The translations under genes and the position numbers were made by a program. The notes beneath the pieces are model-generated. The model was given only the letters and a program-made list of their open reading frames with translations, was not told the DNA's origin and did not search any database. A DNA stretch of 64,000 bases. Source: a virus. The stretch is taken from the IMG/VR virus record IMGVR_UViG_3300044632_001278. One strand, given 5' to 3'. Shown in pieces: positions 14,962 to 36,383 of this stretch. Positions within the stretch are counted from its first letter, which is position 1. The number at the start of each line of letters is the position of its first letter.

Positions 14962-15252
14962 ATGATACTATTAACACGAATCGTTGAGGATTTAACTAAC
15001 CCACAAGTTAAAAACGCCGTAGATCCATCTCTTTTAAAGTTAATTGACAAGGTAATCGATGACACAAATGTTTTGGTAGTTAATAACTTAAAAATGGTAA
15101 AGGATATTTTATCAAAAGAACCAATTGATAAGGCTAGATTAGACGTTGCACTAAGCAATTATAAACGTTATTTTAATAGAGACAATGGCGGCACACCTGA
15201 AGTCATTCGTGGTATGACAATGCAAAATAAACTAGACGAGTTAGCAAAATGA
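14962..15252 (+). CDS. Hypothetical protein (putative head-internal protein)
   Basis: ATG at 14962 (MILLTRIVE) lies 4 nt after ATATTTAT; preferred over the track's TTG start at 14941. Confidence 0.6.
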   Translation: MILLTRIVEDLTNPQVKNAVDPSLLKLIDKVIDDTNVLVVNNLKMVKDILSKEPIDKARLDVALSNYKRYFNRDNGGTPEVIRGMTMQNKLDELAK

Positions 15253-15770
15253 TTAGTTTAACTGACATTTTAAATGAAGTTTTATCTGAGTCTGATCCAA
15301 AAGTTGGAACTGGTAAAAAGCCAAAAGGATCTGATAGACGATTATATACCGATGAAAATCCGAAGGATACGGTTAGAGTAAAATTTAAAACATCCCAAGA
15401 CATTAAAGATACACTAGCTAGTAGTGGTTTTAAATCAAAAAGTCACAAAAGACAATCTCAAATTATAAATCTTATACATCAGAGAGTTAGAGCAGCTTAT
15501 CAAAATGCTAAAGATCCAAATGTTAAAAGCAGATTGAAAAGTGCTTTAGACTATGCTATACAACGTAAAGAGGCCTCAAAAGCAAAAACAATAAAATTAA
15601 ATAAAGAAACATCCAATCCAGAATCTGGTAAATCATCTCCATATGGTTCTGGATATGGAGTGGTTGAAAATAATATAGAAGAGAAATGTTGGAAGGGATA
15701 TACGCAAAAAGGTATGAAAACATTGTTTGGTAAAAAATATCCCAACTGCGTTAAAAAAACAAACAAATAA
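15249..15770 (+). CDS. Basic hypothetical protein (putative head-internal protein)
   Basis: MISLTDILNE N-terminus; Lys-rich modules including KCWKGY...PNCVK, a motif I recognise from T4-like phage small proteins. Confidence 0.65.
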   Translation: MISLTDILNEVLSESDPKVGTGKKPKGSDRRLYTDENPKDTVRVKFKTSQDIKDTLASSGFKSKSHKRQSQIINLIHQRVRAAYQNAKDPNVKSRLKSALDYAIQRKEASKAKTIKLNKETSNPESGKSSPYGSGYGVVENNIEEKCWKGYTQKGMKTLFGKKYPNCVKKTNK

Positions 15771-15789
15771 TTTTATACCAATTATCAAA

Positions 15790-16563
15790 ATGATTAGTTT
15801 AAACGATTTATTATTAGAAGCCAAACTTCCTCAAAGCGAGCAAGATATGGATCTTTATGCTCGTAAATACAAGAAGACTATAGATTATTTACGTACCAAG
15901 AACAAAGTACTATTGTTAACTACCAGTAATAGATGGAGTGGTCACAAAGACGATATTGCTAAGAGTACACAATTAGCAATTAAAATGCAAGAATTATTAG
16001 GTAAAGAAAAAGTATCATTGATAGATACTACCAAATTAAATATAGTTCCGTGTGAGGGCAATGTATCGTCAAAATGGGGAAATCATTGTGGTACAAAAGA
16101 TTCATCTTTAAAAGATAAAGAAAAAAACCCAACAGGAGAACATCGTTGTTGGGCTAGTATTAATAATAAGAACGATGAATTATGGAAAGTAAGTAAAGAG
16201 CTATTTGAAAGTGATACCGTTTTATTTTTTGCTAGTGTGAGATGGGGTCAAGCCAATGGTTTTTATCAAAAATTGATCGAAAGATTGACTTGGATTGAAA
16301 ACAGACATTCTACGTTGGGAGAAAGTAATATTGTTAAAAATATTGATTCAGGATTCATTGCAACTGGACAAAATTGGAATGGCAAAGATGTTACACAAAC
16401 ACAAAAAGAAGTACTTCAGTTTTTTGGATTCAAAACACCAGACCAATTATTTTGGAATTGGCAATTTACTAATAATAGTTTAGACGAAACTAAGAGTTCT
16501 TACAAAAAAGCAATTACTGTATTTGATAAAACATTTTTAAAACCATATGATAAGACTAAATAA
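15790..16563 (+). CDS. Flavodoxin-like / NADPH-dependent FMN reductase (WrbA/Isf-like)
   Basis: Start MISLNDLLLE at 15790; TTSNR, LNIVPCEG, ESDTVLFFASVRWG, QKLIERL pattern. Confidence 0.7.
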   Translation: MISLNDLLLEAKLPQSEQDMDLYARKYKKTIDYLRTKNKVLLLTTSNRWSGHKDDIAKSTQLAIKMQELLGKEKVSLIDTTKLNIVPCEGNVSSKWGNHCGTKDSSLKDKEKNPTGEHRCWASINNKNDELWKVSKELFESDTVLFFASVRWGQANGFYQKLIERLTWIENRHSTLGESNIVKNIDSGFIATGQNWNGKDVTQTQKEVLQFFGFKTPDQLFWNWQFTNNSLDETKSSYKKAITVFDKTFLKPYDKTK

Positions 16564-17581
16564 CATTTTAAGTGAGGTAATACAAGAAGGCGGCGCAGGT
16601 GGACATATGGCACATCCATTTGATTTTGTAAATACTGGCGCTAAATTGGTAGGTGTATTTGCGAAAGCAGTAAAGTCTCTGAAGCAAGGCGCCGGTAGTG
16701 TAAAGATTGACGGTGTTAATGCAAGTATCCGTATGATAAACAGCCAATTTGTAATGGATCGTGGATCAGCAAAACCACTTGATATTAAGGGCATGAGACC
16801 CGAAGATTTGCCAAATAGATTTGAACCAGGTCATGGATTTATTAATATTGGAACTAAAGTAATCAATATTTTCGATGAAGCGATTCCAAGTACCAAATCC
16901 GAATTAAAAAAGTTGGGCTTGTTGAACAATCCAAATATATTGTTTAATATTGAATATGTAGAAGGTACAACAAACGTAGTTGGTTATGGTGATATTGGAA
17001 ACTTTTTAGCAATTCATGGCTTAAAAGAGATCAAACCAAAGACATTTGGTAAGGATGGTAGTGTAAAATCCCGTGTTGCTGTTGAAATACCGTATGATAA
17101 AGCGGCAATGCAGTCCTACATCAATAAATTAAATAAGGTTGCAATGAAGTATGGATTCAAAGTACTAGGCAGCGTTGGTACATCATTTAAATCGGATCCA
17201 AATTTGGCCAAAGTATTGAGAGAACCAGTAACATTATATCCTACAGAAGTTGCTGAAACCAAGTCATTAAAAGACTGGTTAAAAAATGTAAAAATCGATC
17301 TTCCACTTATCACCCGTGAACAATTTATTAATGCTTCAAACAGCAAAAATATTACGCAAGATTTTGCCGGTCAAGACGTTCAAAAGATTATAAATGATAC
17401 CATTGTTTATTTAACCACTATCAAATTAGGAGATGAAGTATTAAAGAATGCTACTAGTGAGATTGGTGACTTAGATAAACATGAAGGAATCGTGGTTAGA
17501 GATCCAAATATTTATAACAATCCTTTCAAAATTACAGGAAGTTTTATTATAAAAGGTTTGGAAAGTAAGTTTAAGAAATAA
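16547..17581 (+). CDS. Conserved phage protein with ligase-like covalent nucleotidyltransferase motifs
   Basis: GGAGGHMAHPFD; motif I KIDG, III NIEY, IV EGIVV, V FKI in the canonical order. Confidence 0.55.
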   Translation: MIRLNNILSEVIQEGGAGGHMAHPFDFVNTGAKLVGVFAKAVKSLKQGAGSVKIDGVNASIRMINSQFVMDRGSAKPLDIKGMRPEDLPNRFEPGHGFINIGTKVINIFDEAIPSTKSELKKLGLLNNPNILFNIEYVEGTTNVVGYGDIGNFLAIHGLKEIKPKTFGKDGSVKSRVAVEIPYDKAAMQSYINKLNKVAMKYGFKVLGSVGTSFKSDPNLAKVLREPVTLYPTEVAETKSLKDWLKNVKIDLPLITREQFINASNSKNITQDFAGQDVQKIINDTIVYLTTIKLGDEVLKNATSEIGDLDKHEGIVVRDPNIYNNPFKITGSFIIKGLESKFKK

Positions 17582-17599
17582 AATAAATACATATTTGTT

Positions 17600-18247
17600 A
17601 TGAAAAGAGCATTAGGTAAAAGCAATCTTGATATTGTTAAAGATTATGTTGATGGCGTTCGTCCATTCGTCCAAGTAGGATATGATTCTAATTTGGAAAA
17701 TTCAACCCGTAAAGAAGGTGAAGAGTGGGAGGATGGTCAAGGACGTAAATGGGTTTGGAAAAATGGTAGTAAACGTAGAGTTCAAAAACGCGCTACGATT
17801 ATCAATGAACAACGTTGTAAATGTTGTAAGATGGATGTTCGTTGGGGCAATTATTTAGATGATCGTGTTTGGCCCAAAACAGGATATTGCTACGATTGTT
17901 TTATTGATTTCCAAACAAATCTTAAATTAATCGGAATGTTCGACGTATATAACGAACTTCAGGATTTAAAAAATGAACGTAGTATTTTGGAAGATTATAA
18001 GAAAAAGTTTGAAGAAAGTAAAAAGTTCTGCGAAGAAAATCAAGGAAAACCAGTTGAATTCTTAGAAGAAGATGGTTCATTTGAAAGATGGGAAGGCATT
18101 CAAGATTATAATAAAATACTAGAGGATCTAAATAAAGATTTAGAACTACTCTATAAACGTTTAGAAGAACTAAACGCTAAGATAAAAGATTACGAAGAAA
18201 AGTATGAGTCAGCCAAATCTAAGAGAAATAATAAAGCAAGAGTATAA
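17600..18247 (+). CDS. Hypothetical Zn-finger/coiled-coil protein overlapping terL
   Basis: CKCC...CYDC cysteines, C-terminal coiled coil. Confidence 0.6.
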   Translation: MKRALGKSNLDIVKDYVDGVRPFVQVGYDSNLENSTRKEGEEWEDGQGRKWVWKNGSKRRVQKRATIINEQRCKCCKMDVRWGNYLDDRVWPKTGYCYDCFIDFQTNLKLIGMFDVYNELQDLKNERSILEDYKKKFEESKKFCEENQGKPVEFLEEDGSFERWEGIQDYNKILEDLNKDLELLYKRLEELNAKIKDYEEKYESAKSKRNNKARV

Positions 18248-19793
18248 GAAGTGTATTGAGGATCCAATATACTTTATGAAAAAGTATGTTAAGATCCAAC
18301 ATCCTATTCGTGGTACTTGTAACTTTGAATTGTTTCCTTTTCAAGAGACAACTCTATCAGACTTCGTAGATAATAGTCTTAATATTGTATTAAAAAGTCG
18401 TCAGATGGGTATTAGTACTCTTACAGCAGCTTATAGTTTGTGGTTAATGACATTCCATAACGATAAGAATATTCTTTGTATTAGTATTACTCAAGAAACC
18501 GCAAAAGAAATCGTTACCAAAGTTAGATTTGCTAATGATAACTTGCCGTCTTGGTTAAAAGTTCCCTGTGTAGAAGACAATCGTCTTTCATTACGTCTAA
18601 AAAATGGATCGCAAATCAAAGCAGTATCATCTGCTGGTACCGCTGGTCGATCATCCGCACTATCTTTACTAATCATTGACGAAGCTGCATTTATTGACGG
18701 TATTGAAGAAATTTGGTTGTCATCACAATATACACTGTCTACTGGTGGTAGAGCTATTATATTAAGTACGCCAAATGGTGTTGGTAATTTCTTTCATAAA
18801 ACGTGGGTAGAAGCTGAAGAAGGTAAGAACAACTTTAAAACAATACGATTACCATGGCATCTACATCCAGAAAGAGATCAAGCTTGGAGAGATAAACAAA
18901 CAGAATTGTCAGGTGTAAAAGGTGCAGCGCAAGAATGTGATTGTGATTTTAGTACATCTGGTAATCAAGTTGTGAGTATTGATATTTTAGAGTTTTATAA
19001 ACAAACTTATATTAAAGATCCAATTGAAAAACGTGGTAATAATCAAGATTTTTGGATATGGGATTATCCAAATTATAGTAAAAATTACATATTAACGGCC
19101 GACTGTGCGAGAGGAGATGGAGCAGATTATAGCGCATTTCATATCTTTGACATAGAAACATTGGAACAAGTTGCGGAATATAAAGGACAATTAACTACCA
19201 AGGATTATGGAAACTTGTTGGTAAGTGTTGCAACTGAATATAATAATGCGTTATTAGTCGTGGAAAACAATAACGTGGGTTGGGCTACACTTCAACAAAT
19301 TATAGATAGAGATTATCAAAATACATTTTATAGTGCAGCTGATTTAACTGTTATAGATGTGGAAAAAACATATACTAATAAATTAAATTCGGCGGACAAA
19401 AAATTAGTGGCCGGATTTACAACCACTAGTAAAAATAGACCATTAATCATTAGTAAACTAGAAAACTTTTTTAGAGAAAAAGGTGTTATAATCAAGTCTA
19501 AAAGACTTTATGAGGAATTGAATGTGTTTATATGGAATGGAGCTAAAGCTGAGGCTATGAAGGGATATAATGATGATTTAGTTATGTCACTAGGCATTGG
19601 ATTGTGGATTCGTGAAACAGCTTTAAAACTTAGAAACGAACAAATAGCTTATAATAAAGCAATGGTTTCTAAAATATCAAAAGTAACAAGTCAAATAACT
19701 GTGCCAAAACAAGTAAGCACTGTACCTGATCATCAAAAGACGATGGAATTTACTGTAAATGACAAAAAAGAAAGTTTAACTTGGTTGTTGTAA
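18204..19793 (+). CDS. terL: Terminase large subunit
   Basis: Walker A KSRQMGIS, Walker B LIIDEAAF, STPNG, nuclease ADCARGDGADYS and NDDLVMS. Confidence 0.95.
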   Translation: MSQPNLREIIKQEYKKCIEDPIYFMKKYVKIQHPIRGTCNFELFPFQETTLSDFVDNSLNIVLKSRQMGISTLTAAYSLWLMTFHNDKNILCISITQETAKEIVTKVRFANDNLPSWLKVPCVEDNRLSLRLKNGSQIKAVSSAGTAGRSSALSLLIIDEAAFIDGIEEIWLSSQYTLSTGGRAIILSTPNGVGNFFHKTWVEAEEGKNNFKTIRLPWHLHPERDQAWRDKQTELSGVKGAAQECDCDFSTSGNQVVSIDILEFYKQTYIKDPIEKRGNNQDFWIWDYPNYSKNYILTADCARGDGADYSAFHIFDIETLEQVAEYKGQLTTKDYGNLLVSVATEYNNALLVVENNNVGWATLQQIIDRDYQNTFYSAADLTVIDVEKTYTNKLNSADKKLVAGFTTTSKNRPLIISKLENFFREKGVIIKSKRLYEELNVFIWNGAKAEAMKGYNDDLVMSLGIGLWIRETALKLRNEQIAYNKAMVSKISKVTSQITVPKQVSTVPDHQKTMEFTVNDKKESLTWLL

Positions 19794-19814
19794 ATACTTA
19801 TATACTAGAATAAT

Positions 19815-21716
19815 ATGGCAGATAAATCTTTTCAAGAATTACGCAATCGTTCATTATTTGCACGTTTGAAACGTTTGTTTTCAAATGATGTAATTGTTCG
19901 TAATATCGGTGGTAAAAAATTAAAAGTAATTGATACTGACGAAATTCAGTATGCTACAGATCGTAATAGTTTAAGAGATCGTTTTAATAGATTACGCACC
20001 ACTTCATATAATCAATACACAAGAGATTTCAATTTATCATATCAAAGTAGTCGTGTAGAACTATTTCGTGATTATGATACAATGGATATGGATCCAATTC
20101 TAGCATCTGCATTGGATATCTATGCAGATGAATGTACAACTAGAAATGAAATGGGTGAAGTAATTCATATCAAATCATCCAACGATGAAATCAAGCAAAT
20201 TCTACACAATTTGTTTTATGACATTTTAAACATCGAATTCAATCTTTGGAGTTGGACTCGTTGTATGGTCAAATACGGAGATTTTTATCTACGTTTACAT
20301 ATTAGCCCTGAATATGGTGTTTATTTGGTAGAACCATTGAGCACTTATTATGTAACCCGTGTAGAAAACGCACATTTATCAAATAAGAATTTTGTTAAGT
20401 TCCAAGTCAACCTTCCATATGGTAATAAACTAGAAGATCTGGAAAATTATCAAATTGCACATTTTCGTTTGTTGAGTGATAGTAACTTTTTGCCATACGG
20501 AAAAAGTTCTTTAGAAGGTGCTCGTCGCGTATGGAAACAATTGAGTTTGATGGAAGACGCAATGTTAATTCATCGTATTATGCGTGCTCCTGAAAAACGT
20601 ATTTTCAAGGTTGACATCGGTAATATTCCTCCAAATGAAGTTGATAACCATATGCAACGCATTATGGATCAAATGAAAAAAGTACCATATTTGGATCAAC
20701 AAACAGGCGACTACAATTTAAGATTCAATTTGCAGAACATGGTAGAAGACTTTTTCTTGCCAGTTCGTGGTAGTGATAGTGGTACAAGTATCGAAAACTT
20801 GTCTGGTCTAGAATGGACAGGTACTGATGATATTGAATATCTGCGTAACAAAATGATGGCAGCGCTTAAGATTCCCAAAGCATTTTTAGGTTATGATGAA
20901 AGTCTAAGCGGTAAAGCTACATTGGCAGCTGAAGATATACGTTTTGCTAGAACTGTTCAACGTATTCAACGTATTATTGTAAGTGAGTTAAATAAGATTG
21001 CGGTTATTCATTTATATTCACAAGGATATAGAGATGAATCGTTGGTCGATTTTACATTGGAATTGACCAATCCATCTACTATCTTTGAAAAAGAAAAGAT
21101 CGACGTATATAAAAGCAAAGTCGAACTCTCCAAAGATATGCAAGAACAAAAAGTATTTTCTAAGAAGTGGATCTATGAAAATATTTTTGGTTTATCAGAT
21201 CAAGATATGATTGAGTTGCAAAAACAACTTATCGATGATGCTAAAGGTACATATAGATTTAAACAAATCGAAGAAGAAGGCAATGATCCAGCATTATCAT
21301 TCTTAAACAAGGACGATAAAGAAGGAGCCGGTGGATCCGGTGGTGGGCCAGGTGGTGAACCAGGCGGCGCCGAGCCAGCTGGCGGTGAGCCAGGCGGAGA
21401 ACCGCCAGGTGGAGGCGAACCAAAAGGTGGTGAAACTGGTGGGGAAAAATCAACACCCCCAAAATTAGCAGAACGTGATCAAACTGGTAGAAAAGATGCA
21501 CGTGATTATCGATTTGGCGAAGATCCATTGGGTACATTAGAAAACAATAGACGTAGTGATTTGTCTGTGACGCACAAGTATAAAAACAAGTCTCCGCTAT
21601 CACTAGAATCTATTAAAGGATTGACCGATGTACTAAAAACTTTAGACCAAGAAAAAGAAATATTACGAGAGGGAAGTAAAAAATCTTTTATGGATGAACA
21701 AAATATAAAAGAATAG
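19815..21716 (+). CDS. Portal protein (T4 gp20-like)
   Basis: QLSLMEDAMLIHRIMRAPEKRIF, EDFFLPVRG, ALKIPK; position between terL and head genes. Confidence 0.93.
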   Translation: MADKSFQELRNRSLFARLKRLFSNDVIVRNIGGKKLKVIDTDEIQYATDRNSLRDRFNRLRTTSYNQYTRDFNLSYQSSRVELFRDYDTMDMDPILASALDIYADECTTRNEMGEVIHIKSSNDEIKQILHNLFYDILNIEFNLWSWTRCMVKYGDFYLRLHISPEYGVYLVEPLSTYYVTRVENAHLSNKNFVKFQVNLPYGNKLEDLENYQIAHFRLLSDSNFLPYGKSSLEGARRVWKQLSLMEDAMLIHRIMRAPEKRIFKVDIGNIPPNEVDNHMQRIMDQMKKVPYLDQQTGDYNLRFNLQNMVEDFFLPVRGSDSGTSIENLSGLEWTGTDDIEYLRNKMMAALKIPKAFLGYDESLSGKATLAAEDIRFARTVQRIQRIIVSELNKIAVIHLYSQGYRDESLVDFTLELTNPSTIFEKEKIDVYKSKVELSKDMQEQKVFSKKWIYENIFGLSDQDMIELQKQLIDDAKGTYRFKQIEEEGNDPALSFLNKDDKEGAGGSGGGPGGEPGGAEPAGGEPGGEPPGGGEPKGGETGGEKSTPPKLAERDQTGRKDARDYRFGEDPLGTLENNRRSDLSVTHKYKNKSPLSLESIKGLTDVLKTLDQEKEILREGSKKSFMDEQNIKE

Positions 21717-21772: not shown

Positions 21773-22651
21773 ATGCACAAGAAAGCAAAACATTCGAAAT
21801 TCAAGAATGCTGGAATATTGTTTGAACTACTCACTAGACAAATAACAGCCGACATTCTAGCGGGGAGAGATGAATCATTTACCAAAAATCTGATGTTCAA
21901 GTATTTTCACGAAAGCAAAGAACTAGGAAAAGAAGTGCAACTTTACAATTTCATCCTACAACAAAAAAGCAAAGATGCTTCTTCCGCTGAACGTCTTTTG
22001 AATGTTGTTTTGCAAACACGTTCCAAACTAGATGAACGCGAATTGAACAAGCAAAAGTACAACATAATTAAAGAAATAAAAGAGAAGTATAATATAGACG
22101 AATTTTTGAAAAATAAAATTCCAAATTATAAGTTATACGCCTCTATATACAAATTATTTGAAGATCAAGATAAAAGTGAAGTCAAGTTTGATGTATCTGA
22201 ATTGTTAGAATCAAGAGAATATATTGTTGAGAGCTTAACAAAAGAAAAGAAGTCAGAACAAGAAATGATGGATGTTTATGGAAATCAAAGTGCTGAAGTT
22301 AGATTGTTGGCCTATAAATTCTTGATTGAAAACTTCAATACCAAATACAACAATCTTTTGCCAGATCAAAAGAAACTTCTAAAAGAATATATTACTAATG
22401 TTTCCAACTCCAGTAAATTTACAAAATACGTCAACGAAGAGTACAAGAGAATAAGTGGAGTATTAAAAGATCAAGTGAAGAATGTTACCTCTGAAGTGGT
22501 TAAAATTAAAATAAATGAAGTTATTAGTCAGTTTTCAACAAAATCTTGTGTTGGCGTAATTAAAGAAAATCAATTGACTTCATTGTTAAATGTATACGAA
22601 TTGATAGAAGAAATTAAAAAGATTGATGTCAAAAATGAAGCAAAATCTTAA
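21773..22651 (+). CDS. Head-region hypothetical protein
   Basis: 292-aa ORF (KHSKFKNAGILFELL) between portal and protease; ATATTTAT upstream. Confidence 0.65.
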   Translation: MHKKAKHSKFKNAGILFELLTRQITADILAGRDESFTKNLMFKYFHESKELGKEVQLYNFILQQKSKDASSAERLLNVVLQTRSKLDERELNKQKYNIIKEIKEKYNIDEFLKNKIPNYKLYASIYKLFEDQDKSEVKFDVSELLESREYIVESLTKEKKSEQEMMDVYGNQSAEVRLLAYKFLIENFNTKYNNLLPDQKKLLKEYITNVSNSSKFTKYVNEEYKRISGVLKDQVKNVTSEVVKIKINEVISQFSTKSCVGVIKENQLTSLLNVYELIEEIKKIDVKNEAKS

Positions 22652-23634: not shown

Positions 23635-24237
23635 ATGAAACAAGTATTGATAGACATATTACCATTTGAATTTAAAAAGACATCTTTAAATGAATCTCTT
23701 AAAGATGGAAAACTATACGTAACCGGCGTATTACAACGTGCGGATGCAAAGAATCAAAATGGAAGAGTGTACCCAGAAGATGTACTAAAGCGTGAAGCTG
23801 AAAAGTATATGCAAAACTTCGTAAAACAACGTCGTGCTATGGGTGAGTTGGATCATCCAGAAAGCAGCGTGGTTAACTTAAAGAACGTTAGTCACAACAT
23901 TGTTGATATGGGTTGGGAAGACAAAGATTTGGTTGGAACAGTTGAAATACTGCCCACACCAAGTGGTAATATTCTTAGAGATTTATTGCAATCTGGAATT
24001 TTATTAGGTATTAGCAGCAGAGGATTAGGCAGTGTTAAAAAAGATATGAGAGAAGGTGCCGACATTGTACAAGACGATTTTGATTTGATCGCATTTGACT
24101 TTGTAAGCAATCCTAGTACACAAGGTGCCTTTATGTATCCTCAAGGCAAAATCAATGAAAGTGTAGAACAAAGAACAATTGTCAACCCATACGGTAATGT
24201 AGAAAGAATTATTCACAACATTCTATCAGAATTATAA
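23635..24237 (+). CDS. Prohead core protease (T4 gp21-like)
   Basis: NQNGRVYP, GELDHP, VSH, GISSRGLGS, FDFVSNPS; ATG at 23635. Confidence 0.93.
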   Translation: MKQVLIDILPFEFKKTSLNESLKDGKLYVTGVLQRADAKNQNGRVYPEDVLKREAEKYMQNFVKQRRAMGELDHPESSVVNLKNVSHNIVDMGWEDKDLVGTVEILPTPSGNILRDLLQSGILLGISSRGLGSVKKDMREGADIVQDDFDLIAFDFVSNPSTQGAFMYPQGKINESVEQRTIVNPYGNVERIIHNILSEL

Positions 24238-24249
24238 TATTTATAAAGT

Positions 24250-24681
24250 ATGAAATTAAAACATTTACTAGAAAATTCCACTGAAGTAGCTTATAGTCCA
24301 CTTACCAAAGAAGAAAAGTCAAAAATGGTTGGTGCTATTAGATCCTATAATGAATATCGCAAGGGATTAAAAGCCGATTGTGTATATGAAACTGCACAAA
24401 AAATTATGGAGGCTGTTAATCTAGCAGAACGCTACGCAATTAAAGAATGTGGCGACTGGATGCAAGCCAAAATGGTTGAACGTGATATGAAAGAAATCAA
24501 AAGAGACGCTGCCAAAATGTATGAAGAAGCCAACAAAATGAAAGAAATTGAAAAACAACTTGAAATGTTGTATGAACAAGTTGGTATGAGATTGGAACGT
24601 TATTTTGAAATTGCCGACCAAGTACACACTGATCCAAAACCACAAGAAGGCACTATTAACTCATCGGTATCGAATCAATAA
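24250..24681 (+). CDS. Hypothetical protein (putative head-internal protein)
   Basis: MKLKHLLE start; ATATTTAT 5 nt upstream. Confidence 0.65.
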   Translation: MKLKHLLENSTEVAYSPLTKEEKSKMVGAIRSYNEYRKGLKADCVYETAQKIMEAVNLAERYAIKECGDWMQAKMVERDMKEIKRDAAKMYEEANKMKEIEKQLEMLYEQVGMRLERYFEIADQVHTDPKPQEGTINSSVSNQ

Positions 24682-25114
24682 ATTCCAACATTTTATCGAA
24701 CGATTCAAAAACGTATCTTCTATTTGCTTCTATCACATAACCTTCGTCTGTTTTATAGACGAAGGTTTTTCTTTTCTCGTTGACCATATCTAAAGATGGA
24801 ACTTCTATTTCAGAAAACATTCTGTATTCATCATCTATACGAAAATTCATTTCACCCAATATATCAATTTCCGTAAAATCCCATCCGTTTGGATTATCTA
24901 TATCTTCTAACTTAAACATTTTTTCTTCTTCAAAATTATCATTGTTTATAAAGTTAATTAATTTTGGAGACTTATAATTGTTGTAGCTATTATTCATAGA
25001 ACGCACATCTGGGTTGGAATATGGAGTTTCGTCCCCAGTTCTTTTTATAAACTTATAATTGTCTTTTGTGGAATTCATATGTTTAGCTAGATTTGGATTG
25101 AAATTATAGGCCAT
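24656..25114 (-). CDS. Hypothetical protein
   Basis: 152-aa ORF coupled to the upstream minus-strand ORF. Confidence 0.6.
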   Translation of the reverse strand: MAYNFNPNLAKHMNSTKDNYKFIKRTGDETPYSNPDVRSMNNSYNNYKSPKLINFINNDNFEEEKMFKLEDIDNPNGWDFTEIDILGEMNFRIDDEYRMFSEIEVPSLDMVNEKRKTFVYKTDEGYVIEANRRYVFESFDKMLEFIDSIPMS

Positions 25115-25697
25115 AAGAGTTAATTCTATCTATAAAGTCAGATAGGGTTTTTGTTTGTTCAGAATCTTTATTCTTATCCAAAGCAGTACTTAACATACTG
25201 AATATTTCTTTGTCTGGTTTATCAGGATAAGATCTTTGAATAAAACAAGCATATACAATTAAATTTTCATTTTTTTGATCTATGAGCTTTTTAAACACAT
25301 ATTTCTTGGTACTACCATTACTAAATATTTCAGTTTCTATTTTTGTATTTTCTGGTGGGTTAGGAATAAAATTTGTTTTTCCAAATCCACTAAATCCCGC
25401 TTGTTTACTTTGAAAAGTTAACATTTCTTTTTTAGTAAACGCAATACCTTCATTTTCTTTTAGCACTTGGTTAAATGATTTGCCTTTAATGATATCAAAA
25501 TCACTTAATGAATATTCTGCTTCATTAAGACTTTTCAATATTTCTTTCAATTTAACAAAGTGTTTTACACTACTTGGTTTGATGGTACGTGCCATCTTAC
25601 GAACTTGTGGTGAAACTTCTTTTGATTTGATTCCACCTTTTTGTAGTGCTCTTACCAATCTAAATAGTCTGGCTTGTTTTTCGCTTTTTGCAGGCAT
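25104..25697 (-). CDS. Hypothetical protein
   Basis: MPAKSEKQARLF start, internal VKLKEILKSLNE; minus-strand ATATTTAT at 25704-25711. Confidence 0.65.
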   Translation of the reverse strand: MPAKSEKQARLFRLVRALQKGGIKSKEVSPQVRKMARTIKPSSVKHFVKLKEILKSLNEAEYSLSDFDIIKGKSFNQVLKENEGIAFTKKEMLTFQSKQAGFSGFGKTNFIPNPPENTKIETEIFSNGSTKKYVFKKLIDQKNENLIVYACFIQRSYPDKPDKEIFSMLSTALDKNKDSEQTKTLSDFIDRINSYGL

Positions 25698-25852: not shown

Positions 25853-26929
25853 ATGAGCGATCTATTAAAAGAAAGCATTGCGGATGCAAAGGCTGTACGT
25901 GAAACAGCATTGGCAAATGCAAAGACCTTCCTCGAAGAAAGTTTTGCAAACAGTATGAAAGAAATGTTTGCAGATAAACTCAAGGAAGAAATGGCAGAAG
26001 AAACCGAAGCACCAGAAGGTGAAGAAGGCAAGATTGAAGAAAAACTTGCATCTTCTAACATTGGTAAGGATGACAGCAATGTTGCTACAAAACAACACCC
26101 AACCAAACCATCACCAGCTTCAAATAAAAACACAACTCCAGCAGGTAAGCAAGAATTCGACGTAAAGCTTGAAGAAGAAGCTGCCGTTGAAGAAGGTGCT
26201 GAAGTAACTAGTGAAGAACTAGACGAAATTCTAGCAGAACTAGAAGGTGAAGTAGTATCCGAAGGAGATTCCGACGATGCCGGTGAATCTGATGATTCAA
26301 TGGAAGAAGAAATTAATCTAGACGAACTTCTAGCAGAACTAGAAGGCGAAGATCCAGCAGCTGCACCAGCACCTGCTCCAGCTCCAGAAGCTCCTGTTGC
26401 TCCAGCCGCTCCAGCTGCTGAAGTACCAGCTCCAGCCCCAGCTCAAGTTCCATCTCCTTCAGAAGGTGAATACTCAGAAGAAGTATCCGCTGAAGAAATG
26501 GCAGAAGCTCTAGTAGCTATCAACGAAGAAAACGAACAACTAAAGTCTCAATTGAGCGAACACATCAAGACTGTAAAGTATTTGAAGAGTGTTCTATCTG
26601 AAACAAATCTATTGAATGCTAAGTTGCTCTACACCAACAAATTGTTCAAAGGTAAAGCTCTTACCGAAGATCAAAAGTTGAAGATCATCAACACTTTCGA
26701 CTTGACCAAGAATATTCGTGAAGTCAAGTTGGCATATACAGTTTTAGCCGAATCACTTAATTCCGGTGCATCAGTTGTCAAGAAAAAGACCAATACAACT
26801 GCTCAAACTATCACCGAAGGTTTGGCAAGCAAACCAGTATCCAGTACAAAGCCTGATTCTACCATTGTAGAACCTCAAGCTGAAGTAATGGCTTCAAGAT
26901 TCCAAAAACTCGCAGGAATCAAGAAGTAA
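25853..26929 (+). CDS. Prohead scaffold/core protein
   Basis: Very acidic, Pro/Ala linker, coiled coil, ends FQKLAGIKK; directly upstream of the capsid gene; SD-like AAGAAAGG before ATG 25853. Confidence 0.8.
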   Translation: MSDLLKESIADAKAVRETALANAKTFLEESFANSMKEMFADKLKEEMAEETEAPEGEEGKIEEKLASSNIGKDDSNVATKQHPTKPSPASNKNTTPAGKQEFDVKLEEEAAVEEGAEVTSEELDEILAELEGEVVSEGDSDDAGESDDSMEEEINLDELLAELEGEDPAAAPAPAPAPEAPVAPAAPAAEVPAPAPAQVPSPSEGEYSEEVSAEEMAEALVAINEENEQLKSQLSEHIKTVKYLKSVLSETNLLNAKLLYTNKLFKGKALTEDQKLKIINTFDLTKNIREVKLAYTVLAESLNSGASVVKKKTNTTAQTITEGLASKPVSSTKPDSTIVEPQAEVMASRFQKLAGIKK

Positions 26930-26981: not shown

Positions 26982-28808
26982 ATGAGTATGGATGTAAAAA
27001 GTCTATTGACAGGAAATATGAATCCACAAGCCAAATTGATGGCTGAAACACGTGGACTACAATCCAAGTGGGAAAAGACAGGCCTCCTAGAAGGTTGCCA
27101 AGGTGTTGAAAAAGCACATATGTCAATCCTATTGGAAAACCAAGCAAAACAATTGCTTGACGAAGCAACCACCACCGGTACCTCTACCAGTTCAGAACAA
27201 TGGGCTGGTGTAGCTCTACCATTGGTACGTCGTGTATTCGCTGAAATCGCCGCTAAGGAATTCGTCAGCGTACAACCAATGAATCTACCATCTGGTCTAA
27301 TTTTCTATCTAGACTTCAAGTATGGTACAACCGCTCCTGGTAGTGATTTGCGTAACTTGAACAACGGTAGTTCCGTAACTACCCGTGCAGGTAAGCAATT
27401 GAACGACAGTTTGTTTGGTGGTACAGGTAAGAAGTTGGGTTCAACTGATGACGCAGTACGTGGTCTATACGGTCAAGGTGCTTTTGCTTATTCAGTTCGT
27501 CCAGTAAGTAGCTCTGCTATTACCCTAGCTAAGAGTGCAACTGCAACCGCAACTGGTAACACCATCCAAACCGCTTCTTGGAACGACGTTCAATTTGCTG
27601 CTGAATTAAGCGCATCTGTCGTAGCTAAGAAGTTGTTCAAGGTTATCTTGAACCACGACGACAACACCACTGGTGTTGCTGGTCAAGGATATATGTACAA
27701 CGTTGACTTGAACGCAGTACGTTCATTCAACTTGATTTCAGGTTCAGTTGCACCAACTTCTCTAAGAAGCAATGGTTTGGTATTGAACACCTATTCAAAA
27801 GCAATTAACACTGGTAGTTTGAGCAATCCATTCTATCAATCCGTATATATCGTATCCGCTTCTAATAGCGCATTCGGTGGTGCAGCAAGCAACGTTAAGT
27901 TGATCTATAGTCTACAACCTACCGATAACCTACGTGGTGACTTCGAAGCTGGTAAGACCCCAGGTGAAGGTTCCGGTACCGCTGGTAACGTTCCTACACA
28001 AAGCATCGATACTGATATCAGTATCCCAGAAGTAAACTTGGTACTAAACAGCGAACCAATCGTTGCTAAGACCCGTAAGTTGAAAGCAGTCTGGACCCCA
28101 GAATTGGCTCAAGACTTGAACGCATATCACTCCATCGACGCAGAAGCAGAACTTACTGCTCTATTGAGTGAATATGTATCTATGGAAATCGATCTTGAAA
28201 TCCTAGACATGTTGAACGAAGCCGTTCAAGGCATAACAACCGAAGCTTGGTCCGCCCAAATCGGTGTTGAATTCAGCAAGGGATTGAATGCAACTACTGG
28301 TGAAGCAATCTTCACACGTAATGCAAACAGTTCACCAAACCGTACTGCTTACGTAAAGAGCACTTGGTTCCAAACTCTTGGAAACAAGATCCAAAAGGTA
28401 TCTAACACAATCCAAAAATTGACCCTACGTGGTGGTGCAAACTTCTTGGTCGTAAGTCCAGACGTTGCAACTATCCTAGAATCAATCCCAGGATATGTAG
28501 TAAACACTGATGGTGATCAAGCTAAGTTCGCAATGGGCGTAAGCCGCGTTGGTAGCTTTGCTTCTCGCTTCCAAGTTTACAAGAACCCATACATGACCGA
28601 TAACGTAGTATTGGTTGGTTTCCGTGGAAACAACTTCCTAGAAACCGGTGCTGTATATGCTCCATATATCCCACTAATCCAAACTCCATTGGTCTATGAT
28701 CCAGTGAACTTCACTCCACGTAGAGGCGTAATGACCCGCTACGCTAAGAAGGTAGTGCGCCCAGAGTTCTATGGAAAAGTTATTATCGGCGATCTCGATA
28801 CCGTATAA
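26982..28808 (+). CDS. Major capsid protein (T4 gp23-like)
   Basis: LPLVRRVF, VQPMNLPSGLIFYLDF, KTRKLKAVWTPELAQDLNAYH, EIDLEI, YAPYIPL, GVMTRYA. Confidence 0.95.
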   Translation: MSMDVKSLLTGNMNPQAKLMAETRGLQSKWEKTGLLEGCQGVEKAHMSILLENQAKQLLDEATTTGTSTSSEQWAGVALPLVRRVFAEIAAKEFVSVQPMNLPSGLIFYLDFKYGTTAPGSDLRNLNNGSSVTTRAGKQLNDSLFGGTGKKLGSTDDAVRGLYGQGAFAYSVRPVSSSAITLAKSATATATGNTIQTASWNDVQFAAELSASVVAKKLFKVILNHDDNTTGVAGQGYMYNVDLNAVRSFNLISGSVAPTSLRSNGLVLNTYSKAINTGSLSNPFYQSVYIVSASNSAFGGAASNVKLIYSLQPTDNLRGDFEAGKTPGEGSGTAGNVPTQSIDTDISIPEVNLVLNSEPIVAKTRKLKAVWTPELAQDLNAYHSIDAEAELTALLSEYVSMEIDLEILDMLNEAVQGITTEAWSAQIGVEFSKGLNATTGEAIFTRNANSSPNRTAYVKSTWFQTLGNKIQKVSNTIQKLTLRGGANFLVVSPDVATILESIPGYVVNTDGDQAKFAMGVSRVGSFASRFQVYKNPYMTDNVVLVGFRGNNFLETGAVYAPYIPLIQTPLVYDPVNFTPRRGVMTRYAKKVVRPEFYGKVIIGDLDTV

Positions 28809-28918: not shown

Positions 28919-29662
28919 ATGAAAAGTGGTATATACAAAATTACAAATGTTAAGAATGGCAAGTTTTATATTGGTTCTGCTAAAGATATTGATCGTCGTT
29001 GGTGGGAACATAAAAATGATTTAAAAAAGAATAAACATAAGAATCCTAAATTACAACACGCTTGGGATTTTTACGGGGAAAACAGTTTTGAATTTATTAT
29101 ATTAGAAAATGTAATAGAATGTGAATTGTTTAAACGAGAACAATTTTATTTAGATATGTTTAAACCCTATATGCGTGATATAGGTTATAATATTACCCCA
29201 ACCGCAAGTGGAGGCGATAATTTTACACATAATCCTGATAAAGAAGAAACTCGTCAGTTACTATCTGATATTAATCTAGGAGCTAAAAATCCTATGCACG
29301 GTAAAAAGCATAGTGATGAGGCTAAAGAAAGGCAACGTGATCGTGCTGTAGGACGTTATACTTTGGAGTGGTTTGTTGACAAGTATGGTATTGACAGTGG
29401 TACACTTAAGTACAAGGAGAGAAATGACAAATTGGCTAATCGTAATATTAATTACAGTTATGATAATGGATTAAAAGGCAAAAAGCGTGGTGCTATGAGT
29501 GATGAAATGAAACGTAAGATTAGTGAACAAAAGAGAAATTTTGCGCTTAGAAAGAATGAATTTGTTGATGATTTAAAGAGTGGTAGTTTTACTAACAATG
29601 CATTAAGTGAGAAGTATGGAGTATCATTAACCACGATCAAATTACATAAAAGAAAATATTAG
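28919..29662 (+). CDS. Free-standing GIY-YIG homing endonuclease (NUMOD3-type DNA-binding tail)
   Basis: SGIYKITN...FYIGS, REQFYLD, GYNI, NPMHGKKHSDEAK. Confidence 0.9.
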   Translation: MKSGIYKITNVKNGKFYIGSAKDIDRRWWEHKNDLKKNKHKNPKLQHAWDFYGENSFEFIILENVIECELFKREQFYLDMFKPYMRDIGYNITPTASGGDNFTHNPDKEETRQLLSDINLGAKNPMHGKKHSDEAKERQRDRAVGRYTLEWFVDKYGIDSGTLKYKERNDKLANRNINYSYDNGLKGKKRGAMSDEMKRKISEQKRNFALRKNEFVDDLKSGSFTNNALSEKYGVSLTTIKLHKRKY

Positions 29663-29664
29663 TT

Positions 29665-29913
29665 TTATTTTATTTCCCAAGGAAAATGTCCACTTAAAAT
29701 ACAAACAATCCAAAATTTACATCTACATATAAAACTTACAAAGTATAATCTTATAAGTCCAATTATTACTTTGATCCACATATATTCCCAATGTCTAAAT
29801 TGTTTATTTTGCGTAAATAAATTAATAATAAACAGTTTCGGGTTTGTTTTTACGAATAATAAATCTTCTTTGTATCTGGATTTTACATCCTTTAATGTAA
29901 TATAGTCTTTCAT
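29665..29913 (-). CDS. Small hypothetical, partly hydrophobic protein
   Basis: 82-aa ORF directly downstream of the Mom-like gene. Confidence 0.45.
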   Translation of the reverse strand: MKDYITLKDVKSRYKEDLLFVKTNPKLFIINLFTQNKQFRHWEYMWIKVIIGLIRLYFVSFICRCKFWIVCILSGHFPWEIK

Positions 29914-29917
29914 ATTT

Positions 29918-30691: not shown

Positions 30692-30697
30692 TATTTC

Positions 30698-30725: not shown

Positions 30726-30728
30726 GAT

Positions 30729-30941
30729 TTATATTATATAAAAAAGACCTTTGGAATTATATACTACAGTTCTAATTTTGGTAGCATTAATCTTATTGAT
30801 ACCAAGTCTATCTATTACTTGAAATGGATCAGGGTGATTATTTATAGGAGCTGCCATAACTCTATCCTTTATTTTGTATACATCCAAGTCTGTATTAACA
30901 ATACTTGGATGATATTGTCTTACTAAAGGCATTGTTCTCAT
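30729..30941 (-). CDS. Small hypothetical protein
   Basis: 70-aa ORF overlapping the cyclase stop codon (ATGA). Confidence 0.5.
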   Translation of the reverse strand: MRTMPLVRQYHPSIVNTDLDVYKIKDRVMAAPINNHPDPFQVIDRLGINKINATKIRTVVYNSKGLFYII

Positions 30942-32713: not shown

Positions 32714-32728
32714 AGTTTAATTAGTAAA

Positions 32729-33106: not shown

Positions 33107-33181
33107 AATCGTCTTTAGTTTATTAACACATAACATTTGTTAACAATCCAAAACAATTATATAATAAATATAAATATTAAT

Positions 33182-34147
33182 TTATTTAATCCACTTTTGT
33201 TCTTTTAGAATATCATCAATCAATTCTTTTTCGGAACTATCCATTTCTTTATCAAATCTTTTCAATACTTCAGTCAATGGATATACTCTATCAGGAGATT
33301 CTTTTTGTTTTTCTTTTAGTTCTTGAATTACATCAACTATTTTAACAAGTGGAGACTTGAATTCATCAACTTTGTCTTTTGAAGCGAAGTTAGCCAATTC
33401 AAATGCATGTGGAGTTAATGCTTTTACCAAACTTAGTAATCCAGAACCAATCATATTAAATATACTAAATGCTGCACCAGCTGCTGGATGTACTGTTGCT
33501 AATATTCTTAATATAACAAATACCACAACAAATATGATAATTGCGGTCATTGCACTAACAAAGAACTTTTTTAAACCCCAAAATACAGCATTAAGACCAA
33601 ACATACCACTCATAGCATCCAAAGTAGCCTTGCTTTGATCAGCTTCTTTTGCAATTTCTTTTGCTTTATCAGTCATTTGCCATAATTCATCGTCATACTT
33701 TTCTTTCAAAGCAGACTTTTCTTTTTGCAATTTGTTTATGATTTCGTCACGTTGTGATAGTAATTGATCACCCTTTTTTCTTTCCTCAGCAACTTGACTG
33801 TTTAATAAATCAACGGTAGCTTTTATACGTTTAATTTCATCTATGTGTGGTGATCCAACTATAGAAATTACACGTTCATTGAGTGATTTAGCAGTATCTA
33901 CTTGTACTGACGGGTTTGTTACTTGACTTAAAGAGTGTTGAATACCTATAGACAAAGACGATGCTTGTACACGTTTGCCTTTTTCTACTTTTTCCAACTC
34001 TACCATCGTATTATCTACTTTGGCTTCTTGTTTAGCAACAGCGTCTTGTGCAGTTGTAACTTGCTTCGCCGGTCTAACTTCAGACGAAATACAACCGGTT
34101 AGTATTAAAATTACGATGGTGTAAAACAGTTGTTTTTTAAAGTTCAT
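33182..34147 (-). CDS. Lipoprotein with coiled coil and C-terminal TM helix (unimolecular spanin-like)
   Basis: Lipobox LTGC at residues 16-19, long helical region, TM FFVSAMTAIIIFVVVFVIL. Confidence 0.6.
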   Translation of the reverse strand: MNFKKQLFYTIVILILTGCISSEVRPAKQVTTAQDAVAKQEAKVDNTMVELEKVEKGKRVQASSLSIGIQHSLSQVTNPSVQVDTAKSLNERVISIVGSPHIDEIKRIKATVDLLNSQVAEERKKGDQLLSQRDEIINKLQKEKSALKEKYDDELWQMTDKAKEIAKEADQSKATLDAMSGMFGLNAVFWGLKKFFVSAMTAIIIFVVVFVILRILATVHPAAGAAFSIFNMIGSGLLSLVKALTPHAFELANFASKDKVDEFKSPLVKIVDVIQELKEKQKESPDRVYPLTEVLKRFDKEMDSSEKELIDDILKEQKWIK

Positions 34148-34192
34148 ATAATATAAATATTATTTTTTATAATAAAACTAATATTTATCAAT

Positions 34193-34801
34193 ATGATCAA
34201 ACTTAATGACTTAATAGAGAACGATTCGTTGTGTCCGATGGCACATCCTAAGAACATAGAACCAGTGATGAGTTCTTATTTACGTTATCATATTGACAAT
34301 AAAATTCCACTTAGCGAAAACATTTTTAGAACCTATAGTGAGTCTTATTTTGATTTAATCGAAGAAGTTCGTACTTTGTATTTTCAAAATTTAATAGAAT
34401 TGTGTGACGCTGACGCTGAATTGGTTGAAAGTGATTTGGGTAAAAAGGCTATATTTGAAGGTAGAGAAGTGTATTTGGATGCGCCTATCGAAGACGAAGA
34501 AGATTTATTGATGGAACTTAAGCATAGAGGACGCACTGTTAATTTAAGTAGACCATTTAGAACACCCGGCGGTCCTAAAAAATATGCTGTATATGTTAAA
34601 TCTAAGAATGGCAAAGTTAAAAAAGTAACATTTGGAGATCCAAATATGAGAAGCAGAGCTAGTAGCAAGGCTCGTCGTAAGAGTTTTGCAGCTAGACACA
34701 GATGTAGTCAAAAGAAAGATAGAACAACGGCTGGATATTGGAGTTGCAGAAGTCATAGAATGAAATCGTTGGGTAATAAAGGTAAAGGTAAATACTGGTA
34801 A
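34193..34801 (+). CDS. Conserved phage basic protein (putative head-internal)
   Basis: MIKLNDLIE start; PGGPKKYAVYV, VTFGDPNM, SFAARHRC, AGYWSC motifs. Confidence 0.7.
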   Translation: MIKLNDLIENDSLCPMAHPKNIEPVMSSYLRYHIDNKIPLSENIFRTYSESYFDLIEEVRTLYFQNLIELCDADAELVESDLGKKAIFEGREVYLDAPIEDEEDLLMELKHRGRTVNLSRPFRTPGGPKKYAVYVKSKNGKVKKVTFGDPNMRSRASSKARRKSFAARHRCSQKKDRTTAGYWSCRSHRMKSLGNKGKGKYW

Positions 34802-35067
34802 TGAGTCTACCGTTTATAGAAAACCCACTGGGTAACAGTCAGTATATAAGAGAATTTAGTTCCGATGTAGCTACTCACGAACTGGAATGGCATATAGATC
34901 GTGAAGACAGAACCGTTGAAGTTATAGAAAATAACAATTGGCACTTTCAATTAGATAATAATTTACCACAATTACTTAAAGAAACAATATTTATACCTAA
35001 AGAAACATACCACCGTGTAATAAAAGGCACAGGTAATCTAAAAGTAAGAATAACAAAACACATATGA
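34801..35067 (+). CDS. Small cupin-like protein
   Basis: EWHIDREDR...FIPKETYHRVIKG cupin-like His pattern. Confidence 0.55.
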   Translation: MSLPFIENPLGNSQYIREFSSDVATHELEWHIDREDRTVEVIENNNWHFQLDNNLPQLLKETIFIPKETYHRVIKGTGNLKVRITKHI

Positions 35068-36383
35068 AATTTATTGATTTATTAACAGAAGTTAAAATGT
35101 ACGAAACACTTGGGTTACCTGATGACAGTATTATCCCACTAGATACGTTTGTATGTGAATGTAAAAATTGCGTAAATCAATCTCTATATGAAGCTATAAA
35201 TGATACCGATAACAATTTAAAGATATGTTTGACTGAAGCGAACAAAAAGGAGCCTATTAGTTTTGAGTTGGCCGAATTAATGAAGAATATTGCCCGAGAC
35301 ACTCAAGGAAGATTAAAACTGTTGAGTGTATTAAACGATCCAAAAACACTGAAGTCTTTCTTAGATGACAAAGGATATTTGACTGCAATTTTATATTTGG
35401 CTCCCTCTGATTCATCAGGTCACGAAGTGTGTCCAAAGAAAAGTCCGGAATGTAACGCTGGTTGTTTGAATTTTGCTGGTAACCCTGCATATCTAAAAGC
35501 AAAATTAGCAGCAAGAGCTAGAAAAACTCGTTGGTTGTTTGGTGACAAATTGACATCTGATGAGATGAAAAATATTCCTACAGATCCAAAAATTATAGAT
35601 AGATTTTATGGCAAAGGTAGACCCGGACCCGAAGGTAAACGTGGTAGAATATTGAATCCAATGCGTCCTGAAGACTTCATTGAAAGATTGCAAATTGAAA
35701 TGGAGTTTTTGAAAAAAGTGGCTGCTAAATACAATTTAAAGTTATCGGTTAGATTAAACGGTACGAGCGATCTTGATTTTCATAAAAAATTGGAAAGTTG
35801 GAAATCTGCAAATCCAGATGTTAAATTTTATGACTATACAGCCGTGTTTAAATGGGCAATGCAAAGTCTTGAAGATCCTTCAAAACCACATATGACTTTT
35901 TCAAGAAAAGAAACTTTACAAAACAATATAGAATGTGAAAAATATTTGAAGGCTGGTGGTAATATTTCCGCAATATTTGATGAATTACCAGAATATTATC
36001 GTGGTTATAAAGTAATTGATGCAGATAGAACCGATTTGAGATTTTTAGACGATAGTGATCGACCAATTGATCCTGATACAGGTAAACCCGTGGGTGTAAT
36101 CGCCGGATTAAAGATGAAGGGATTTAGATTAAAAGACGCATTTGCCTTGGGTATAATACAAAATAAGGGACCAGAAGATACATTCGTAATAAGAACCAAG
36201 GAATTGAGGAAAAGATTTGGAGATAAGTATTTTACACAAAAAATTCATTGGGGTGATCGCGCACCAACAGAGCCAAACAATATTACTGCTAAACAGATCT
36301 ATAAAGATAAAATCAAGAATTATTTAAATAAAATATCAAGTAAATTGAAAGGTACAGCTGATAAAACGGATGAAAAAATATGA
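35064..36383 (+). CDS. Gp88-like Cys-containing phage protein
   Basis: LYLAP, CPKKSPECNAGC, RLNGTSD, FYDYT, DLRFLD, GLKMKG; MKFIDLLTE start. Confidence 0.6.
   Translation: MKFIDLLTEVKMYETLGLPDDSIIPLDTFVCECKNCVNQSLYEAINDTDNNLKICLTEANKKEPISFELAELMKNIARDTQGRLKLLSVLNDPKTLKSFLDDKGYLTAILYLAPSDSSGHEVCPKKSPECNAGCLNFAGNPAYLKAKLAARARKTRWLFGDKLTSDEMKNIPTDPKIIDRFYGKGRPGPEGKRGRILNPMRPEDFIERLQIEMEFLKKVAAKYNLKLSVRLNGTSDLDFHKKLESWKSANPDVKFYDYTAVFKWAMQSLEDPSKPHMTFSRKETLQNNIECEKYLKAGGNISAIFDELPEYYRGYKVIDADRTDLRFLDDSDRPIDPDTGKPVGVIAGLKMKGFRLKDAFALGIIQNKGPEDTFVIRTKELRKRFGDKYFTQKIHWGDRAPTEPNNITAKQIYKDKIKNYLNKISSKLKGTADKTDEKI

Follow-up and report, generated by a model that had tools for sequence, protein, structure and literature searches.

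Seven proteins encoded by the uncultured lake myovirus of IMG/VR record IMGVR_UViG_3300044632_001278, a distant T4 relative of the Immutovirus / Mel-JY01 group, share an N-terminal tag of 8-10 residues with the pattern M-I-x-L-x-x-(I/L)-(L/I/V)-x-E. We consider that this tag is probably a capsid-targeting propeptide of the T4 type, acting in both targeting and cleavage. Because the tags end in the cut site of the phage's own T4-type head protease, the most likely fate of the tagged proteins is to enter the capsid and be trimmed, as T4 internal proteins are; their delivery into the host, suggested by analogy, is held with lower confidence. An earlier sequence-only reading of the DNA had proposed such a tag and regarded all seven proteins as injected cargo. 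Several independent computational lines supported a T4-style propeptide read by a gp21-like protease, but the second part was not borne out, as open reading frame (ORF) 34193 and, less clearly, ORF 24250 are as rich in protease sites as scaffold. The stretch analyzed here (the window) is a 64,000-nt section of a 75.6-kb IMG/VR contig that is ~32% complete, and ORFs are named after their start positions.

Occurrence and enrichment of the tag

The seven N-terminal strings listed in the sequence-only reading were all found in place (Table 1). Under a rule taken beforehand from T4, in which (L/I)xE closes at residue 8-10, 10 of the 59 genes of the 75.6-kb contig carried a tag, compared with 1.9 expected (P = 2e-5). 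A stricter pattern, fitted after the fact, matched 7/59 genes against 0.05 expected, and the highest count in 5000 shuffles was 2. Across the tags and their orthologues, L/F at position 4, I/L at 7, L/I/V at 8, and E at 10 were kept, with positions 3, 5, and 9 varying. The codons used for the tag also varied (ATA/ATT/ATC, TTA/CTA/CTT, and GAA/GAG), indicating that conservation acts on the protein; a nucleotide-level signal at the RNA or translation step was ruled out on the same grounds. A signal peptide was ruled out on sight, as the leader is acidic-ended and has no long hydrophobic core. The proteins behind the tag had been described as unrelated, and this held: when the first 12 residues were removed, every pair gave a BLASTP E value above 0.5. 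With no similarity past the tag, paralogy of the tagged genes was ruled out.

The longest ORFs of 14962 and 15790 begin at upstream TTG codons (14941 and 15727, respectively). ATG is the better start for both, since the ATG-led N-terminus is kept in relatives. For 14962, it is also favored because a TATTTAT motif (see below) falls between the TTG and ATG candidates.

Three internal versions of the tag had also been reported, at residue 48 of the minus-strand ORF 25697, residue 155 of ORF 49367 (in the linker between its HAD and nucleotidyltransferase domains), and residue 215 of ORF 51145. These are present, but their frequency is not above chance. The core pattern matched 34 internal places in the 24,133 residues of the contig proteins, and the three versions therefore carry no weight alone.

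A second leader class of 12 residues (M-T-K/R-x-E/Q-L-K-x-L-I-K-E) was observed on small unrelated ORFs in relatives (L065, L074, L010, L039, and L062) and in Flavobacterium phage vB_FspM_immuto (81525, 102294, and 113188; hereafter immuto).

Head protease and its predicted sites in capsid and core proteins

A gp21-like protease had been assigned to position 23635, and we confirmed this: the match to PF03420 scored 103.8 bits (cut-off, 27), that to the T4 protease structure 5jbl had an E value of 1.8e-18, and identity to T4 gp21 was 33%. The catalytic His (in ELDHP) and Ser (in ISSRG) are present and align with the two positions that are replaced in 5jbl relative to wild-type T4. The protease has candidate sites of its own at L-N-E(20) and I-N-E(175), the latter of which aligns with I-T-E/S near the C-terminus of T4 gp21 (slashes mark the point after the Glu).

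In T4, a 65-residue propeptide is removed from the capsid protein gp23 (PMC5694885). The alignment column of the T4 gp23 site, FLTE/A, is occupied by LLDE/A in the window protein, IVSE/A in immuto, and LISE/A in Microcystis phage Mel-JY01. The window capsid protein shares 49-50% identity with its counterparts in Mel-JY01 and the immuto phages and 35% with the one in Rhodothermus phage RM378.

The scaffold candidate contains 17 (L/I)xE sites, compared with 7.1 expected from composition (P = 4e-4); the corresponding values for T4 gp22 are 16 and 5.75. ORF 21773 contains 14, compared with 5.7 expected (P = 2e-4), so that both proteins are enriched 2.4-fold beyond composition. ORF 21773 has a TATTTAT motif upstream and is kept in immuto (36% identity) and Mel-JY01. 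It had no family match and is a possible docking partner of the tags.

Separation of the leader from the domains behind it

The RNA-ligase-like protein encoded by ORF 16547 has a double leader, followed by a predicted mature domain beginning at GGAGGHM. An AlphaFold2 model built with a 51-sequence alignment had a predicted local distance difference test (pLDDT) score of 92.3. Residues 1-14 scored below 50 and values exceeded 90 from about residue 21, with the predicted fold beginning after E14; this is the one cargo protein on which the position of the leader outside the fold was modeled.

A search among 1.8 billion representatives yielded 356 relatives of the ligase-like protein, and junctions were counted in the best 150 of these, of which 126 have the core motif and 24, N-terminally truncated or divergent, do not. 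A leader of up to 30 residues was present in 51/150, with (LIVMF)xE directly ahead of the Gly-rich domain start in 45 of them. In another 47, the domain is internal, mostly behind a cytidylyltransferase-like domain, and the same motif stands at the junction in 43. In the remaining 28 with the core motif, the protein begins with a Met or Val followed directly by the Gly-rich start. Thus, 88 of the 98 representatives with upstream sequence have (LIVMF)xE directly ahead of the Gly-rich start. At this junction, P4, P3, and P1 are conserved and P2 varies freely, which corresponds to the T4 rule.

ORF 15249 belongs to a DPK-GTGKKP family of at least 7987 sequence clusters. Among the top matches carrying the DPK motif, 111/115 have (LIVMF)xE one residue ahead of it. 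Identity between ORF 15249 and a marine phage protein (68%) begins at the residue right after the leader, and the two leaders differ throughout, save for the closing hydrophobic-x-Glu. The GP88 domain of ORF 35064 is found without the N-terminus of this protein in pelagiphage podoviruses, mycobacteriophages, and jumbo phages; in a 134-kb relative of the window contig (G001), the gene keeps the tag and ~14 codons and then diverges.

In three marine T4-like contigs, the leaders of the ligase-like genes are T4-styled, their positions 4 and 7 being aromatic, and unrelated neighboring genes of the same contigs share that style. The marine homologue of ORF 15249 comes from one of these contigs, and the leaders of the two homologues each resemble the remaining tags of their respective genomes. 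Judging from these sequences, leader style follows the phage, not the cargo.

Distribution of tagged genes in the late module and in relatives

Four of the tagged genes form a cluster between the tail sheath and terminase genes, preceded by a late-promoter-like ATATTTAT motif. The other two tagged units have this motif ahead of them as well, at 24237-24244 and 34181-34188. TATTTAT was present in 25 copies (12.8 expected) and lies 11, 12, and 11 nt ahead of the ATG at 14962, 24250, and 34193, respectively. It likewise precedes the neck, fiber, tape-measure, and other structural genes, at 12-14 nt, and may be a late promoter.

The 134-kb relative is colinear with the window contig and 95-98% identical to it, and adds ~52 kb of genome. 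The tag was found on 6/23 of its head-module ORFs compared with 1/109 ORFs elsewhere (Fisher P = 9.5e-5). An equal frequency on replication proteins, which the sequence-only reading had named as counting against its proposal, was not observed: no replication gene of this relative carries the tag. Close relatives have other tagged, unrelated ORFs in the same slots. As further observations on this region, the 134-kb relative has a 199-aa chimera that fuses tagged ORFs 1 and 2, and an extra 501-aa ORF (69038-70543, window orientation), missing from the window, between the sheath gene and the tagged cluster.

Similar leaders were found near the terminase gene in the cultured relatives Mel-JY01 and immuto. 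Immuto has 14-15 of them, mostly between the tail-spike and terminase genes; one is on a nucleotidase whose homologue in the window has no leader.

The tagged proteins

Pfam and PHROG searches with the tagged ORFs returned only GP88 and families of unknown function, and PDB sequence searches with ORFs 16547, 15790, and 35064 gave no significant match. ORF 14962 had no Pfam or PHROG family match; its orthologues retain the leader (MIRLTKIIE and similar). ORF 15249 has a net charge of +19, in agreement with its earlier description as a basic peptide. ORF 15790 is possibly flavodoxin-like or flavin mononucleotide (FMN)-reductase-like, which we offer as a lead: its ESM Atlas neighbors partly carry PF03358 (FMN_red; scores 0.90-0.95). 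A single-sequence AlphaFold2 model of it was poor (pLDDT 49), and no match was obtained in Pfam, PHROG, or PDB searches or by tblastn against phages. Relatives of ORF 24250 begin with MIKLKHLVE, and the immuto homologue of ORF 34193 begins with MIRLQEIVG. The GP88-like label of ORF 35064 was verified by a match to PF17338 (85.1 bits; cut-off, 24.4) at residues 203-330.

The label "ligase-like" proved apt for ORF 16547, which combines invariant motifs with an adenylyltransferase fold. K53, D55, and G56 (K-x-D-G, motif I), E313-G314 (motif IV), and K328 (motif V) were invariant in the 51 sequences. In a VIA-align comparison, the model was closest to T4 Rnl1 (Z 9.6; root-mean-square deviation 4.0, 183 aligned), followed by Naegleria RNA ligase at Z 8.1. 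The top 50 rows of the structural comparison were all ligases, with weak Foldseek E values (3e-3). On this model, the protein belongs among the RNA/DNA ligases of the covalent nucleotidyltransferase superfamily. A word-indexed search for homologues gave at least 120 matches, and those listed were all at least 84% identical. Membership in DUF6267 (PF19782) was rejected, as hmmscan gave no match even at an E value of 10 and a six-frame search of the contig gave none; this family is carried by ESM Atlas neighbors only (21-24% of members).

RNA-ligase-like and cytidylyltransferase-like (HxGH) domains are a recurrent pair in aquatic T4-like phages (16547-17581 and 51145-52053 here; loci L093-L172). 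The two are separate in the window; some contigs have them side by side, and in many they are fused, in either order, into proteins of up to 1281 aa. The cytidylyltransferase-like gene (51145-52053) and a HAD-nucleotidyltransferase fusion (49367-50530) lie among tail genes of the window. Both are untagged, have TATTTAT 12-13 nt ahead of the ATG, and seem to be co-expressed with the structural genes. Immuto and marine homologues of the two genes do carry leaders.

In Mel-JY01, the leader is on a fused cytidylyltransferase-ligase protein with I-A-E/GG at the junction, and other phages encode the two enzymes as separate tagged genes. In the 43/47 fused representatives counted above, a tag-like helix closing in (L/I/V)(L/I/V)-x-E occupies the junction of the two domains. 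We tentatively suggest, as a possibility we would not bet on, that aquatic T4-like phages also use the tag inside proteins, with the prohead protease splitting packaged enzyme polyproteins within the capsid. If so, the fused proteins would be a ready-made two-enzyme kit, for RNA repair or nucleotide-cofactor chemistry, delivered with the DNA, and the core of each phage would co-evolve with the style of its tags, aliphatic or aromatic at positions 4 and 7.

Proposed mechanism and alternative explanations

We infer a pathway of docking, cleavage, retention in the virion, and injection. The leader would be a short amphipathic segment, hydrophobic at positions 2, 4, 7, and 8, that docks the newly made protein on the scaffolding core of the assembling prohead. 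It closes in an (L/I/V)-x-Glu site predicted to be cut by the phage's S77 (gp21-like) prohead protease, which would remove the leader after shell closure and free the mature protein inside the head. Some proteins would be cut at two sites four residues apart. The site-poor proteins, namely the RNA-ligase-like enzyme, the GP88-like protein, the basic DPK-GTGKKP protein, and the 257-aa protein, would stay as internal proteins and could exit with the DNA at infection. The site-rich ORF 34193, and perhaps ORF 24250, would share the fate of core or scaffold proteins and be degraded.

Among the alternatives, the one that survives best is still unlikely: that the leaders are processing signals of head-assembly (core/scaffold) proteins only, which are degraded or expelled at maturation so that no cargo set is delivered. 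ORF 34193 contains 8 (L/I)xE sites against 2.0 expected (P < 2e-4), a richness that makes it a candidate degradable core protein rather than cargo, and ORF 24250 contains 5 against 2.25 (P 0.05). Both lie in the head module, 75 related loci have ORF 24250 right behind the protease gene, and T4 gp67, gp68, and gp22 provide a precedent for assembly proteins of this kind (PMC9026906). The ligase-like and GP88-like proteins, however, are at background site density (4 versus 3.1 and 5 versus 4.5 expected, respectively), and the former is predicted to be a well-folded enzyme with intact ligase motifs. Moreover, the cargo set differs among near-identical phages, unlike essential assembly proteins, and the basic 173-aa protein resembles the T4 internal proteins in charge.

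It is less probable still that an amphipathic helix serves another role of late proteins, such as membrane association, oligomerization, or translation start on leader-poor, AT-rich mRNAs, the Glu end being incidental. The AT-rich, helical nature of the tag, similar starts on T4 cytoplasmic proteins, and the internal tag-like segment in fused relatives of the ligase-like protein would fit such a role. Yet the tag residues are kept although their codons vary, the most highly expressed structural genes have no tag, and Glu is the most conserved position in the ligase-like family. Sequence conservation picks up immediately past this Glu, homologues of the ligase-like protein begin exactly at the post-Glu point, and the same rule also holds at the site of the capsid protein that aligns with the T4 cut. 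It is very improbable that the similarity arose by chance or was left behind by tandem duplication of a single ancestral gene: 4/7 tagged genes are adjacent and two have identical first 13 nucleotides, but the observed count was reached in 0/5000 shuffles, the proteins are dissimilar past the tag, and the same leader is on unrelated families in other genomes.

Several points weigh against a T4-type capsid-targeting propeptide. In a control on T4 bases 1-150,000, the loose rule matched 19 genes compared with 9 expected, including those of DNA ligase (MILKILNE), Dda, and UvsY; given these false positives, the loose (L/I)xE rule alone is not diagnostic at the sequence level. Some immuto tags fall outside the late module, which would also suit the helix explanation above. 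Rather than a cut site, the conserved L-L-x-E ahead of the ligase domain could represent a structural feature of this family that is dispensable. S77 proteases were also found in phage contigs, all of them fragments, whose ligase-like gene has no leader; as the protease occurs with all three forms of this gene, tag presence does not track protease presence. Injection is a step that we infer from T4 alone, and in the paper library searched, no virion proteome was found of the source phage or of its cultured relatives (immuto phages, RM378, and Mel-JY01).

Gene layout and other features of the window

The features discussed above are collected in Table 1. The window also encodes neck, fiber, tube, tape-measure, and baseplate genes, and the replication genes lie outside it. 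A near-identity DNA search in a phage collection gave no match. Proteases 88-100% identical to that of the window were found in 80 IMG/VR contigs, indicating that this phage group is common in metagenomes.

Table 1. Positions of the tagged genes and associated features in the window
Feature	Position	Strand	Family or structure	Leader or remark
Tail sheath gene	10970-14884			
Late-promoter-like motif	14950-14963	+		Ahead of tagged cluster
Tagged ORF 1, 96 aa	14962-15252	+		MILLTRIVE at 14962-14988; opens four-gene tagged cluster
Tagged ORF 2, 173 aa	15249-15770	+		Double leader MISLTDILNE-VLSE at 15249-15290, then predicted mature start S-DPKVGTGKKP
Tagged ORF 3, 257 aa	15790-16563	+		MISLNDLLLE at 15790-15819
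Tagged ORF 4, 344 aa	16547-17581	+	RNA-ligase-like nucleotidyltransferase	Double leader MIRLNNILSE-VIQE at 16547-16588
Large terminase gene	18204-19793			
Portal gene	19815-21716			
292-aa protein	21773-22651	+		Between portal and protease genes; candidate prohead core protein
Prohead protease, T4 gp21 type	23635-24237	+	Peptidase_S77 (PF03420), phrog_207, PDB 5jbl	
Tagged ORF 5, 143 aa	24250-24681	+		MKLKHLLE at 24250-24273; directly after protease gene
Scaffold candidate, gp22-like	25853-26929	+		(L/I)xE-rich; homologous to immuto gene in same position
Major capsid protein, gp23-like	26982-28808	+	phrog_138	Predicted maturation site L-D-E(61)/A, Glu codon 27162-27164
Tagged ORF 6, 202 aa	34193-34801	+	phrog_7595	MIKLNDLIE at 34193-34219
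Tagged ORF 7, 439 aa	35064-36383	+	GP88-family domain	MKFIDLLTE at 35064-35090; ~80-aa N-terminal region ahead of domain

Three further regions of the window were recorded. On the minus strand, a 197-aa protein (25104-25697) is encoded between tagged ORF 24250 and the scaffold gene, with its own TATTTAT motif ahead; several PHROG families of unknown function have N-termini matching its first 50 residues. A GIY-YIG-like gene (247 aa, start MKSGIYKITN) and a small minus-strand ORF follow the capsid gene directly (28919-29913). Both are missing from the 134-kb relative, fitting a mobile homing-endonuclease insertion; in T4, segD occupies the same place. An ORF of 2002 aa (39705-45713) lies in a region with a G+C content of 49%, compared with ~33% in the rest of the window; GC skew there is strong, and the region also has internal repeats and an antisense open frame of 1363 aa.

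Implications

If the tags act as in T4, a simple sequence rule would predict the capsid-carried proteins of uncultured T4-like phages, and such proteins would probably be delivered before any phage gene is expressed. The predicted set in this abundant freshwater group comprises an RNA-ligase-like enzyme, a strongly basic protein of a large family, and a GP88-family protein. Enzymes packaged in advance would be candidates for acting against host defenses as soon as infection starts. In the cultured relatives, the Flavobacterium immuto phages and Microcystis phage Mel-JY01, the leaders could also be used as handles for packaging.

Comparison with known systems

In T4, the capsid-targeting sequences (CTSs) of IPI, IPII, IPIII, and Alt are removed by the gp21 protease (Mullaney & Black 1996, reviewed in PMC9026906, PMC3012670, and PMC5694885). 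In IPIII, residues 4 and 7 are important to targeting and 8 and 10 to processing (PMC9026906), and it is these positions that are kept in the seven tags. T4 gp24 also has a short N-terminal propeptide (PMC5694885), likewise removed by gp21, and its first ten residues, MAKINELLRE as read from the T4 record, closely resemble the tag. A further T4 protein, gp61.1 (NC_000866, 18966-19130; 54 aa, hypothetical, adjoining the primase gene), begins with MKTFKEFIKE, a near copy of the internal-protein targeting sequence.

The system described here resembles the T4 CTS: unrelated proteins share a leader of about ten residues, with hydrophobic residues at positions 4, 7, and 8 and Glu at 10. An S77 protease is encoded in the same head-gene block, the same rule appears at sites in the capsid protein and scaffold, relatives differ in their cargo sets, and part of the cargo is basic. 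It differs in its aliphatic consensus (M-I-x-L-x-x-I-L-x-E, compared with MKTYQEFIAE in T4) and in the second site that several leaders have four residues further on. An RNA-ligase-like enzyme and a GP88-family protein are among the putative cargo, as perhaps is a flavoprotein. The genes form a cassette between the sheath and terminase genes and also lie beside the protease gene, and the system is known here from sequence alone.

In phiKZ-like giant phages (SPN3US, phiKZ, and 201phi2-1), a gp21-related protease trims the propeptides of many inner-head proteins, including enzymes; the authors infer that these propeptides, which are identical at the N-termini of paralogues, target proteins to the prohead (PMC5694885). 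Trimming of N-terminal propeptides by a T4-type protease, predicted for the window, is common to both systems. In the giant phages, however, P3 is small (A/S/G-x-E) and the propeptides are mostly longer than 100 residues, whereas here they span 8-14 residues and P3 is L/I/V, as it is in T4.

Encapsulin cargo-loading peptides are short, portable peptides that bring unrelated enzymes into an HK97-fold shell. Unlike the tag, they are usually C-terminal, are retained, and attach to the shell protein directly, and the compartment they load is nonviral. Encapsulin loading thus works in a similar manner but is not homologous to the tag system. The mechanism proposed here is already known from T4; what is new is the consensus, the cargo, and the reach of the system into a distant T4-like lineage.

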